Shown here piece after piece: positions 9,851 through 47,977 of a stretch of 64,000 bases of DNA. The number at the start of each line of letters is the position of its first letter. The stretch's first letter is position 1. Origin of the DNA: a virus (Duplodnaviria > Caudoviricetes). A program made the translations under genes and the position numbers. The notes below the pieces were generated by a model. It was not told where the DNA came from. It was given only the letters and a program-made list of their open reading frames with translations, and ran no database searches. The stretch lies in the IMG/VR virus record IMGVR_UViG_3300010429_001449; one strand, written 5' to 3'.

Positions 9851-9938
9851 TGGAGCCGCCGGAGGGAGTTGAACCCTCAATGTGTCGTTAAACACGCCGA
9901 CTTACAAGGCCGGTGCTCTGCCCTTGAGCGACGGCGGC
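9851..9938 (-). tRNA. tRNA-Thr(TGT) with long variable arm
   Basis: CCGGC-CTTGTAA-GTCGG, extra GTGT..ACAC hairpin, CCA. Confidence 0.9.
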
Positions 9939-11048: not shown

Positions 11049-11134
11049 TGGTGGGCACGGGGAGATTTGAACTCCCACCCGGTTTCCCGGACCAGACTCT
11101 CATCCTGGCGCGTATGCCATTTCGCCACGTGCCC
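11049..11134 (-). tRNA. tRNA-Leu(GAG)
   Basis: CCAGG-ATGAGAG-TCTGG, long variable arm, ACCA. Confidence 0.92.
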
Positions 11135-11138
11135 GTAT

Positions 11139-11223
11139 TGGTGGGCGAGGGGAGAGTTGAACTCCCACGGTCGTAGACCACTGCGTCCTAAGCGCAGCGC
11201 GGCTGCCTTTACGCCACTCGCCC
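11139..11223 (-). tRNA. tRNA-Leu(TAG)
   Basis: CTGCG-CTTAGGA-CGCAG, ACCA. Confidence 0.95.
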
Positions 11224-11233
11224 AAGAAAAGTC

Positions 11234-11375
11234 GAACGACTGGCCAACGTTTTTCCGCTCTCGCCGACACAGTCCCTTCCTTGCAAGTCAGGACTGCCGG
11301 AATCCTTGCGACCTTTAGGCCCTACGGTGCGTGTCGCTCGCCCGTCCGCTTGCCCAAGATTCACCGCAGCCGTTC
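11234..11375 (-). ncRNA. Candidate structured ncRNA (copy A), unassigned
   Basis: Starts just after a promoter; closing stem GAACGGCTG/CAGTCGTTC; inner stems CGACAC/GTGTCG and CAGTCC/GGACTG. Confidence 0.5.
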
Positions 11376-11382
11376 TAAACCT

Positions 11383-11410
11383 AGTATAACAGCGATACGT
11401 AAAATGTCAA
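11383..11410 (-). promoter_or_regulatory. Promoter TTGACA-N16-TATACT
   Basis: Motif family copy upstream of the ncRNA/tRNA run. Confidence 0.8.
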
Positions 11411-11423
11411 GACACTTTTTCAA

Positions 11424-11455
11424 GTTTCAACCCACGCGCCCGTACGGGACGTGAC
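11424..11455 (-). CRISPR. Solitary type I-C-like CRISPR repeat (no array)
   Basis: 32-nt GTCACGTCCCGTACGGGCGCGTGGGTTGAAAC with hairpin and GAAAC end, matching I-C repeat architecture. Confidence 0.7.
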
Positions 11456-11475: not shown

Positions 11476-12252
11476 TCAAAAAACGCCGCGTACTTGGCAG
11501 TACGGATAGATTTTCTTGAGGTCAGGCAGCCACTCCAATAGAAGGGCGAGGGGCGTCGGCGGCTGCAAGTTCATTGATTCGGTGAGGCAGTCGCCCGGTC
11601 GAAACGGTTGCAAAACCCACGGGGCGGTTGCGCGTATGTCTGCGAGGTAATGAGCAATGTTCTTCAAAGTACGTTTGCTATGAATGCGGTACGGACCGTC
11701 GGGATGATAGATGACTGTGGTACGAAGCTCTACGTCCTTCGCGTGTTCGAGTATCCGCGTCAACGACTTGCGAACGCACTGACTCACTCTGATACTGGAC
11801 GGCGCACCGACAAGCTTGTCGTAGCCGTCCTCCGGCTCGAAGCTCGTTTTGATATCGAGCGCTACGGAGTCTACCAGCTTGTCAGCCACGAGAGCGCCGA
11901 GCAGCCCGGCGTTTACGCCGTTGGTGGCCACGCGGATTTCCTTGCCCAGTTCTCTGAGTTTACGGCAGAACTTGCCGATATCCTGCCGCAGAGTCGGCTC
12001 GCCGCCGGTAATAACGATGCCGTTCGTCCATGTGTTCTTGCTGAGTTCCTCAAAGAGAAGGTCATGCGGAATAGCCTCCTCATTGATTTCGGCGGCAGTC
12101 TTATTCACAAGCTCCGCCGAATGGCAGAACGAACAACGAAGATTGCAGCCTCCGACGAATACGACGCTCGACAACCGCCCTGGCCACTCGCTAAGGTCGG
12201 AAGGGATGCAACCTACCACCGGAAAATGACAGTCTTGTTGTTCGTTGTCCAT
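11476..12252 (-). CDS. nrdG: Anaerobic ribonucleotide reductase activating radical SAM protein
   Basis: EWPGRLSSVVFVGGCNLRCSFCH; ITGGEPT; ELRTTV; LQPFRPG. Confidence 0.8.
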   Translation of the reverse strand: MDNEQQDCHFPVVGCIPSDLSEWPGRLSSVVFVGGCNLRCSFCHSAELVNKTAAEINEEAIPHDLLFEELSKNTWTNGIVITGGEPTLRQDIGKFCRKLRELGKEIRVATNGVNAGLLGALVADKLVDSVALDIKTSFEPEDGYDKLVGAPSSIRVSQCVRKSLTRILEHAKDVELRTTVIYHPDGPYRIHSKRTLKNIAHYLADIRATAPWVLQPFRPGDCLTESMNLQPPTPLALLLEWLPDLKKIYPYCQVRGVF

Positions 12253-13789: not shown

Positions 13790-13817
13790 ATTATAACAGA
13801 CACCCCGCCAATGTCAA
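13790..13817 (-). promoter_or_regulatory. Promoter TTGACA-N16-TATAAT
   Basis: Motif family copy. Confidence 0.8.
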
Positions 13818-15616: not shown

Positions 15617-16165
15617 CTACGAGCAAAAGACAGCGGCGGCGACAACCGTTGTCCAGACTCCTCTTTTATCGCCTTCTGCCGTCTGGCAGATGTTGCGCGT
15701 GCGAACAATCTTGCCGCTCATACGATAGACTTCCTTGCGCTCGTCGTAGTTCTTGGTGGAGTCGAATTCGATACCTAGGGTCGTCGCCAACATCGTAGCA
15801 GCAAGGTCTTCGGCATAATCGCCCGCCTTATCCTCGTTCTCGCCGAAGGAGTGATGTTCGCTCAAGTAGCCGTACTGTTCGCCTTCTGCCGGAACGGCCA
15901 GTCCGATTGCCGAGGCGATCATACGGTGCGGTTCGTTCGTTGCAGTGTCGGCCATCACGCAGAATACAATCTGGCCGGGAGCCATGCCTTTCAAGCCTTC
16001 GGTCGGCGAGACTATCTTGCAGCCTGGCGGAAAGATGCTGGAAACGCGCACAAGATTGAATGCGGCGATGCCAGCCTTGCGCAGCGCCAACTCGAACGAT
16101 TGAAGCTTGTCCTTATGTCGTCCAACGCCCTTCGTAAAGAAGACGCGAGCGGGGATGTGCGTCAT
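15617..16165 (-). CDS. pdaD: Pyruvoyl-dependent arginine decarboxylase
   Basis: FFTKGVG...[23 protein letters not shown] (SS cleavage site); YGYLSEHH; [10 protein letters not shown]. Confidence 0.92.
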
Positions 16166-43968: not shown

Positions 43969-44037
43969 GGGTTGACGAGGGACGGTCAAGAGTGGTTCAT
44001 GGTTATCATTCATGTACTCCTGACCAGCATTCAACCC
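43969..44037 (-). ncRNA. Y RNA-like unit 1 (minimal, no tRNA module)
   Basis: GGGTTGAATGC...TACAT...CTCGTCAACCC. Confidence 0.8.
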
Positions 44038-44046
44038 AAAGAGATT

Positions 44047-44167
44047 GGTTGACGAGGGGCGCACGAGAGATTAGCAGGATTCGCACCTGCAATTCCCCGA
44101 AGGGAAACTTGCTTGTTAGGCAAGCGCGTTTGCTTTTTCGCCATGTACTCCCGTACTGCATTCAACC
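44047..44167 (-). ncRNA. Y RNA-like unit 2 (Leu-type D, anticodon, long variable and T arms; no acceptor)
   Basis: GGTTGAATGC...TACATGGCGAAA; CTTGC-CTAACAA-GCAAG; GCAGG-TGCGAAT-CCTGC; CTCGTCAACC. Confidence 0.8.
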
Positions 44168-44179
44168 AAAAAGAGGCGA

Positions 44180-44382
44180 GAGGCCGACGAGGGATGCGGA
44201 GTCTAGTTTTCGCGCTCTGCCGCTGAGCTACCCGCCCGAAGAACCCCGCCAGAGGCCCCTACCAGTCGCACACTTGCGGCTGATGTTCGGCGTCCGTTGG
44301 GGAGGAATTGGTGGGCGGGGCAGGAGTCGAACCTGCGACCTCGGCTTCCAATTAGCATGTAAACCCCACTGCATTCGACCTC
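44180..44382 (-). ncRNA. Y RNA-like unit 3 (YrlA-like permutation with internal CCA and long linker)
   Basis: T arm, CCCGCCC-ACCA, about 70-nt linker, GGGCGGG, D arm, all inside GAGGTCG/CGGCCTC. Confidence 0.8.
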
Positions 44383-44404
44383 AAAAATTCGCGGAAAGAA
44401 AGCA

Positions 44405-44557
44405 CAGTCGACGAGGAAATGAGAGACTTGGTTTTTGCTACGCTCCCATAGTGGCGACCGCCGGATTTCCCCGACAGGTCGCCGTTGGTGGGAGCGGCTC
44501 TTTCGAGCATCTACAGATTTACGGTCTGTTGCATGTAATCCCTCTGGCATTCGACTG
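44405..44557 (-). ncRNA. Y RNA-like unit 4 (opened at D arm; internal CCA)
   Basis: ACAGA-CCGTAAA-TCTGT, GAAA hairpin, CGCTCCC-ACCA, linker hairpin, GGGAGCG-TAGC. Confidence 0.75.
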
Positions 44558-44597
44558 AGTTCTCTCTTGCGGAGCCGTAGCCCCGCGAAAAGGATTT

Positions 44598-44719
44598 GGC
44601 TGACGAAGGTGAAGAAACTTTACCGCTTTCGCGGATGGCGGGAATCGCACCCGCAACGTTCTGTTTACGAGACAGATGCTCTGCTATTGAGCTACATGTA
44701 GTTCCTTCGGCATTCAGCC
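44598..44719 (-). ncRNA. Y RNA-like unit 5 (D, anticodon CGT and T arms; no acceptor)
   Basis: TAGCTCAATAGCAGAGC; TCTGT-CTCGTAA-ACAGA; GCGGG-TGCGATT-CCCGC inside GGCTG/CAGCC. Confidence 0.8.
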
Positions 44720-44731
44720 AAAAAGAGGAAA

Positions 44732-44873
44732 GAGACCGACGAGGGTTTTGCAAGTCGTATGTGTTTGACCGCCGCTCTACTACCTGAGCTACTCCCGGCT
44801 TGCGCCAGAGGGCAGGACTTGCACCTGCGACCAGCGGTTGCGATAACATGTAGACCTACAAGCATTCGGTCCC
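44732..44873 (-). ncRNA. Y RNA-like unit 6 (classical YrlA topology)
   Basis: T arm, acceptor closed by a GCAA loop, D arm, anticodon stem ACCGC/GCGGT leading into the Ro stem. Confidence 0.85.
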
Positions 44874-44888
44874 CTTTGTTACAGAAGA

Positions 44889-45008
44889 AGGCTGACGAGG
44901 TATTTGAAGAGACAACTTCAAGCGCCGAAGCGCTTGTTGTAGGGGTCGAACCTACTATCGAGGCTTGCGCCTTGATGGTATCCATGTAGTCCCTTCGGCA
45001 TTCAGCCT
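44889..45008 (-). ncRNA. Y RNA-like unit 7 (T arm between two tetraloop hairpins)
   Basis: GCAA hairpin, GTAGG-TTCGACC-CCTAC, TTCG hairpin, inside AGGCTG/CAGCCT. Confidence 0.78.
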
Positions 45009-45017
45009 AAAGAGATC

Positions 45018-45142
45018 GGGCTGACGAGAAATGACCGCGACGTTCAGAGTATTAGTCTGTTGCCTAGCTATTAGGCTACGTTTCCTTTGGTGGAAATGAT
45101 GGGAGTTGCACCCATAATGTAGTCGCAATCGGCATTCAGCCC
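45018..45142 (-). ncRNA. Y RNA-like unit 8 (opened at variable loop; whole permuted cloverleaf)
   Basis: T arm, CATTTCC-ACCA-AA-GGAAACG, D arm, CAGA-CTAATAC-TCTG, inside GGGCTG/CAGCCC. Confidence 0.8.
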
Positions 45143-45152
45143 AAAGTTGTTA

Positions 45153-45292
45153 GCGGCTGGCCGGGATTCAGGGGACGAGCAATTCAGTTCTCGCCACGGG
45201 GTTTTGTACGTTCATTCATTAAACCCGCTGCTCCCTGTCCCAACGCGCTTCTAAGCTTTCGCTCGCCGCTACTTGCTCCACGCTGCAGCCGC
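45153..45292 (-). ncRNA. Candidate structured ncRNA (copy B), leading the Y array
   Basis: Closing stem GCGGCTG/CAGCCGC; inner GGGAC..GAGCA/TGCTCGTCCC; motifs shared with 11234-11375. Confidence 0.5.
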
Positions 45293-45348
45293 ATTCAATC
45301 TAGCGATGTCAAAGAACAGCACGGCGTCGCTTGCTAGGCGATACCCTT

Positions 45349-47410: not shown

Positions 47411-47977
47411 GCGAATTATTGAGAATTTCTCGGATAGAGGGCGTCTAGGAGCCGGGCGGGACGACGTGGATTTCGGCTTCAATCGCGGCTTCGACTTCGA
47501 CCCACAGCAACCGTCCGACGACAGCGGCGGAGTACCCTTCCAGAATGTTGTTGACGATCAGTTCATCCACCAGAAAGGAGAGAACTGTTCTGTTTGCACC
47601 GCCGCCACGCGCAAAGGCTCCGCTGCCTACGCCTACGTTTCTCGTTGCAGATGTGAATGCCATTTCTCGACCCGTCCTTCGTTTCGTTTCAACACACGCG
47701 CCCGCAGGGGGCGCGAAAACAAACGATTAAAAGGCAATTGACCGCCTTTGCAACCTTCATAGCATCTGGTTTAACACACGGGGCGGCGGTTGTCAAGCAC
47801 TATAATTCAGCGTCTTGCCCGTTCAGAAGTTCCGCGATTACTTTTCGGCAAAGAACGCAGGTTATAGGCTTCTTGGCAGTGACACACTCAATACCCAGCG
47901 GCCACGACTGTCCGCAAGCAGTAGCAGCATAGACAGGTGTGATACCGTCGTGTACTTCCAGCCAAGCTACGTGTGTC

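Follow-up and report, generated by a model that had tools for sequence, protein, structure and literature searches.

The repeats of type I-C CRISPR arrays are cut by Cas5c/Cas5d. Cas5c cleaves on the 3' side of G21, at the base of a 7-bp stem, and recognises mainly the trinucleotide U22-G23-G24 (PMC8524198, PMC5965381). The enzyme of S. mutans tolerates the substitutions C20G, G21U and G23U, the first of which breaks the pair between positions 4 and 20 (PMC8524198). Single type I-C repeats are also found in viral genomes. For instance RacrIC1, carried by a Bifidobacterium pseudocatenulatum prophage, is located 11 nt after acrIC5 at the tail of a bicistronic RNA and is active at 29/34 identity; candidates were selected in that study on the presence of a promoter within 250 bp upstream (PMC10651486). 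In the literature we found no worked-out account of the mechanism of I-C Racrs. Solitary repeat units are defined in SRUFinder as near-full-length matches to a known repeat, located in intergenic regions of a virus or plasmid and outside any CRISPR-cas locus, with no full or partial (>70%) second repeat within 100 bp. Host-type repeats in viruses without cas genes of their own are likewise known from viral CRISPR mini-arrays (PMC11656645), and the match of Cracrs to host cas or creT promoters spans 9 or more PAM-proximal bases (bioRxiv 10.1101/2024.10.29.618823).

The stretch analysed here (64,000 nt, referred to as the window) belongs to a virus record of 268,817 bases with major capsid, portal, tail sheath, DNA polymerase and NrdD-like genes, in which 45 tRNAs were called. 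The record is rated 77% complete and another assembly of the same phage has 269,027 bases, 210 more, so that little may be missing. The same DNA is present in JGI sample 3300009776, run SRR5007146, and in several ENA and JGI assemblies. A 32-nt repeat of type I-C had been proposed at positions 11424 to 11455, downstream of an nrdG-like gene and in the orientation of its transcript (the original prediction). We confirmed both its presence and its placement: the 32-mer, called SRU1 below, lies on the minus strand, starts 20 nt past the stop codon of the NrdG2-like reading frame in the same sense, and is matched once in the window and in none of 100 shuffles (Table 1).

Table 1. Features of the two repeat loci, with positions in the window and strand.
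Feature	Position	Strand	Remarks
SRU1, solitary type I-C repeat, 32 nt	11424..11455	-	A4 at 11452 mismatches C20 at 11436; U7 at 11449 forms a wobble
Pseudo-spacer, 35 nt after SRU1	11389..11423	-	A-tract, -35 box and spacer of the downstream phage promoter; ends exactly at the -10 box
Sigma70-type promoter TTGACA-16-TATACT	11383..11410	-	One of 79 of its family in the genome
tRNA-Leu(TAG) and tRNA-Leu(GAG)	11049..11223	-	Downstream of promoter 11410-11383
NrdG2-like radical SAM activase gene	11476..12252	-	Best NCBIfam match TIGR02495, 122.6 bits, just under the cut-off of 131
Nearest consensus promoter upstream of SRU1	13790..13817	-	12/12, 2.3 kb off; inferred source of the SRU1 transcript
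SRU2, second solitary type I-C repeat	47686..47717	-	Canonical 7-bp stem intact (P about 0.9); G1U and G24U
Possible weak SRU2 promoter, TTGACA-17-TAAACC	47768..47796	-	Ranked second by the phage promoter profile among 118 orphan TTGACA sites
72-aa orphan ORF	47445..47663	-	Starts 22 nt past SRU2; no homologue or family found

The assignment to type I-C also held. Comparison with known CRISPR repeats, one of the checks that had been proposed, gave an identity of 30/32 to the repeats of real arrays (L014/L017, L283), and cas8c was detected (PF09709 over its cut-off) in all five genomes tested that hold SRU1-like arrays. Degenerate searches returned many arrays, from the commonest repeat of which SRU1 differs by G4A, C7U and one loop change; the exact SRU1 sequence has no match in 185,579 genomes. 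With the array repeats SRU1 shares the length of 32 nt, the 2-nt 5' overhang, the 7-bp stem region, the pentaloop and the 11-nt handle ending in TTGAAAC. It scored 44.5 bits against a profile made from 32 consensus repeats of arrays, the chance level, taken from 60 genomes simulated with an order-3 Markov model, being at most 15.0 bits. GC-rich hairpins are common past stop codons, but this score and the 30/32 identity reduce a chance look-alike, or an ordinary 3' hairpin or terminator, to a next to negligible probability. Moreover, the stem is not followed by a U tract, the site is absent from our list of terminator-like structures and its folding z-score is just -0.89. We discarded the ordinary 3' hairpin on the identity to array repeats. 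The best local repeat identity in the flanks is 59% upstream and 47% downstream, both below the 70% of SRUFinder. By its sequence, SRU1 truly derives from a type I-C repeat and is, in the SRUFinder sense, a solitary repeat unit, i.e. a near-full repeat match in an intergenic region of a virus, sense to the transcript of the upstream gene and with no second repeat nearby.

The window had been described as containing neither a cas gene nor a second repeat. The first statement extends to the whole 268,817-base record, in which searches for cas1, cas4, cas5, cas7 and cas8c gave no match and no CRISPR-type array was found. The second was wrong: the proposed search of the genome for further copies recovered another I-C-like repeat, SRU2, scoring 39.4 bits, and the next-best (third) site in the genome reached 0.6 bits. 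SRU2 has 6 mismatches to SRU1 and unrelated flanks, and each copy is solitary locally, with best flank similarities of 59% and 62% for the two copies, below the 70% limit. Both are intergenic, both are sense and both have G at position 25. Across the two repeats 11 assemblies of the phage are identical, hence no empty site exists among them. SRU2 corresponds to a row of the SRUFinder table, typed I-C, on contig Ga0116154_10000229 (our L105) (Camara-Wilpert et al. 2023, PMC10651486), and SRU1 has no row in the part of that table covered here. The novelty thus consists of one further solitary repeat of a described class, the class itself and the sister copy SRU2 having already been catalogued.

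The two copies differ in what they have kept, each carrying one change at a position important to Cas5c. SRU1 retains the whole 11-nt handle including U22-G23-G24, and its G4A change is uncompensated, creating an A4-C20 mismatch. The 4-20 pair is kept in 35/35 array consensus repeats; in arrays A4-C20 is confined to scattered single copies, which make up 9 of about 1700 repeats in an A4-enriched set. The predicted probability of the canonical stem is accordingly 0.00 for SRU1 alone and at most 0.03 in its context, against 0.20 to 0.96 for array consensus repeats, and rises to 0.71 when G4 is restored. Instead, a shifted hairpin is predicted at -11.2 kcal/mol versus -8.7 kcal/mol for the canonical one. 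In context, U22 and G23 are predicted to be mostly paired (unpaired at only 0.01-0.16), so that G4A is modelled as moving the hairpin over the Cas5c cut site, which would fall between 11435 and 11434 if cleavage were canonical (cut position per PMC8524198). The gap of 2.5 kcal/mol between the two modelled folds could be bridged by protein binding. In SRU2 the handle is altered by G24U, a change seen in 185,579 genomes solely in single deviant repeat copies. The fold of a cognate repeat, with a stem from pair 3-21 to pair 9-15 and a free 3' handle, is predicted for SRU2 (about 0.9) and not for SRU1. Two further explanations of the SRU1 fold were discarded. U7 does not count as damage, being the consensus of the 16-copy array L283, and the stem is recovered when only G4 is put back. 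A selected silencing role for the pairing between SRU1 and its 5' flank was rejected, since 26-30% of shuffled flanks pair as well.

Concerning transcription, no promoter was found within 250 bp upstream of SRU1, which consequently falls outside the selection rule of the Racr study (PMC10651486). A terminator-like hairpin at 11504-11489 lies inside the nrdG reading frame and, because of this position, read-through was deduced; a read-through transcript of the nrdG-like gene would carry SRU1. RacrIC1 itself being bicistronic, such read-through remains compatible with a Racr. Overlooked by the original prediction, the near-consensus promoter downstream of SRU1, whose -35 box begins 13 nt past the SRU1 end, heads a structured RNA and the two tRNA-Leu genes. 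Members of the phage's promoter family often carry TTC 11-13 nt ahead of the -35 box; it stands in the exact SRU1 register in 7/79 promoters and is equally common one or two bases off, which identifies it as the upstream consensus of the family. No acr or aca gene was recognised near SRU1, where the neighbours of unknown function have no Pfam, NCBIfam or PHROGs match; one of them may still be an undescribed Acr. Racrs often have an acr gene close by, though this is no requirement. The 72-aa and 76-aa ORFs were considered as known Acrs and rejected, with no homologues and Atlas matches under 0.9. SRU2 lies about 80 nt downstream of its possible TTGACA promoter box.

The RNA between the downstream promoter and the tRNA-Leu genes (11234-11376, minus strand, about 143 nt) has paired ends and a predicted energy of -53 kcal/mol with a z-score of just -1.2. 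It has no Rfam match and no close paralogue by BLAST or nhmmer, its alignment to 45148-45345 being weak.

We tentatively favour, at a little less than an even chance, the reading of SRU1 as a captured host I-C repeat acting as a weak decoy of the Racr type and as the attenuated copy of a pair. The SRU1 RNA would be made by read-through from the nrdG-like operon, and Cas5c of the host would bind its intact 11-nt handle and cut after G21. The cut RNA, bearing no invader spacer, would seed Cas8c/Cas7 assembly and thereby divert Cascade from true crRNAs. SRU1 would be the attenuated member because G4A favours the shifted hairpin hiding the cut site, and for the same reason its cleavage would require refolding by Cas5c. 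The decoy reading draws on the occurrence in one genome of two I-C repeats with unrelated flanks, both intergenic and sense, against none in the capsid relatives (mostly fragments) and Ro60 phages compared below, on the 30/32 identity to array repeats from genomes with cas8c, on the I-C typing of SRU2 by SRUFinder, on the position 20 nt past a stop, which resembles that of RacrIC1, and on the full handle of SRU1, together with the tolerance of S. mutans Cas5c for a break in the 4-20 pair (PMC8524198). The intact 3' ends of both copies weigh little, having a chance of about one in five and being biased by detection. Against it stand the predicted stem probability of 0.00, the lack of a promoter within 250 bp and of a recognised acr or aca neighbour, and the fact that our searches found no sibling conservation.

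Like RacrIC1, SRU1 is one viral intergenic I-C repeat a few bases past a stop, in sense orientation and with no array or cas gene. It differs in following an NrdG2-like metabolic activase instead of an acr, in having no promoter within 250 bp and in the predicted absence of the repeat stem. Compared to the array repeats (PMC8524198, PMC5965381), SRU1 and SRU2 both lie outside arrays, with the 4-20 pair broken in the former and G24 changed in the latter. The original prediction of an RNA anti-CRISPR (Racr) candidate therefore stands for the class of the element and is weakened for its function by the stem mismatch, the absence of a near promoter and the lack of an acr neighbour. Because the cognate fold is not predicted for it, SRU1 cannot be filed as a functional Racr and is a candidate only at the sequence level. 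SRU2 is the better decoy candidate, with its intact stem and possible own promoter, though its G24U falls in the trinucleotide read by Cas5c. As a plain Racr candidate SRU1 adds little, viral I-C solitary repeats being common and the sister copy catalogued. The value of the two copies is rather that of a natural test pair, an intact handle with a shifted stem versus an intact stem with a changed handle. A host with a type I-C CRISPR system is a fair inference from them.

Another explanation, which we consider somewhat unlikely, is that SRU1 is an inert scar. A repeat would have recombined from a host array, for example via a spacer matching the promoter region, and would now decay harmlessly between stop codon and promoter with no RNA function; replacement of the TTC PAM would have given a one-time escape at the DNA level. 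In its favour are the uncompensated G4A that destroys the predicted stem, the fact that each copy has one change which no array shows as its consensus (A4-C20 in SRU1, U24 in SRU2), and the frequency and register of TTC before the -35 box of this promoter family. Among the 15 viral I-C solitary repeats with clear context, 5 are antisense to both neighbours as judged by eye, so that not all such repeats are transcribed decoys. The scar has more difficulty with two independent captures in one genome, both sense. Furthermore, no empty-site sibling showing a replaced PAM was found, and no TTC lies 33-37 nt upstream of SRU1 that would mark a second spacer. A split-promoter version, in which the inserted repeat separates the -10 box from an orphan -35 box at 11479, was rejected, the orphan box ranking 64 of 118.

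It is improbable that the repeats are cis-acting sites for host Cas5c, by which a polycistronic phage RNA would be cut, or at which handle-loaded Cascade would cover a downstream ribosome site and so sense the CRISPR state of the host. The nrdG mRNA would be ended at SRU1, and a new 5' end formed before the 72-aa ORF at SRU2. Both copies do lie within putative polycistronic transcripts, and of 26 distinct solitary I-C repeats in viruses, 7 have a ribosome binding site with an ATG within the next 48 nt, the kind of gene-leader position that SRU2 occupies. However, with the short intergenic gaps of phages a nearby start codon is to be expected, and no homologue of the 72-aa ORF was found. The predicted stem is poorest in SRU1, and a strong promoter already serves the RNA downstream of this copy, which makes a cut unnecessary.

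The sequence following SRU1 raises the case of a guide made from a single repeat. Since type I-C cleavage leaves the handle on the downstream fragment, the guide would consist of the 35 nt that follow SRU1. Cleavage of SRU1 would then yield a crRNA carrying the promoter consensus of the phage, with which host Cascade would repress promoters of the phage itself or of a sibling (or, as with Cracrs, a host promoter), an idea that we regard as quite improbable. Still less credible is its specific form, in which host Cas5c would cut the SRU1 read-through RNA and Cascade would be guided to TTC-flanked promoters of the phage early region or of co-infecting siblings, the native copy being protected as the repeat end replaces the PAM. 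What speaks for a guide is that the 35 nt end at the -10 box and match other phage promoters at up to 27/35 positions, and that the native locus carries AAC instead of a PAM. The best site, the promoter at 9937 of G000, has TTC and 26/35 matches, but is mismatched at seed position 2; the sole TTY site with a full 8-nt seed, whose match ends at position 8, is not a promoter. These matches are what any two promoters of the family have in common. The pseudo-spacer has no match in other metagenome contigs and was found in no sibling or host array, the guide has no bounding 3' repeat, and SRU1 is predicted to be poorly cut. As in the Cracr/crlRNA regulators (bioRxiv 10.1101/2024.10.29.618823), a repeat with promoter-like sequence could guide Cascade by partial pairing; in contrast to them, SRU1 is followed by a promoter belonging to the phage itself, and no TTY site of the phage genome matches past position 8. 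The viral mini-arrays also differ, SRU1 having neither a second repeat at spacer distance nor a target found in another virus. A self-targeting guide from SRU1 is possible but unsupported. If it were true, the phage would turn host Cascade into its own transcription repressor, of which we found no description in the literature.

We looked for relatives and for the host. None of 29 capsid relatives (mostly fragments, the full-length matches having 64-75% identity) and none of 18 other Ro60 phages has an I-C repeat, so that the repeat is not a shown feature of the phage's group. Searching viral contigs for siblings gave none by NrdG and 36% identity by the next protein. Ten marker proteins had no other strain in their 90% clusters, and the promoter motif retrieved one 30-kb contig, without the repeat. 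Among 1628 spacers from the fetched arrays, no full-length match to the phage was obtained; partial matches of 18-21 nt from unrelated arrays were treated as chance. Long I-C arrays (L282, L287, L288, L289) occur in samples whose accessions neighbour those of the samples holding the phage. Their repeat is 4 changes from each of SRU1 and SRU2, and the spacers fetched from them do not match the phage. Host assignment by tRNA or gene identity was rejected, identities being at most 86-90% over short stretches. A pyruvoyl-dependent arginine decarboxylase (15617-16165, minus strand) is 70-75% identical to Planctomycetota (Brocadiales) proteins, too distant to assign a host, and its sequence gives a weak lead towards a host in the Planctomycetota.

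Several details were noted around SRU2. A short GAAAC duplication follows it, and in L179 a solitary repeat is likewise succeeded by a tandem of its end. Inside the possible promoter of SRU2, at 47769-47790 on the minus strand, CGCCCCGTGTGTTAAAC resembles an I-C repeat with the middle deleted; it lies 51 nt before SRU2 with 20/32 ungapped identity, beyond the normal spacer distance, and could represent either a coincidence or a second repeat that has collapsed. A low-coverage assembly contig (L124:1) starts one base before SRU2 (window 47718), which fits k-mers shared with host arrays and could be chance. Further downstream, a Ro60 gene (PF25045; 45532-47304, minus strand), which has its own promoter, is followed by a series of GNYGAATGC...TACAT motifs (44035-45140, minus strand).

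The placements of the two repeats recur in other viruses. One scan of viral contigs gave the 26 distinct solitary I-C repeats mentioned above, one of which has a promoter 45 nt further on, an arrangement like that of SRU1. Such similar placements make the contexts of SRU1 and SRU2 both ordinary. A 50-kb phage (IMGVR_UViG_3300031673_000079; L155, L159) has three intergenic solitary repeats that are perfect I-C copies, one of them lying 45 nt before a TTGACA promoter. Finally, the members of one family of viral contigs (L165, L170, L171, L181 and L188) have a perfect I-C solitary repeat 9 nt past an ORF of 96-100 aa, a layout like that of RacrIC1.
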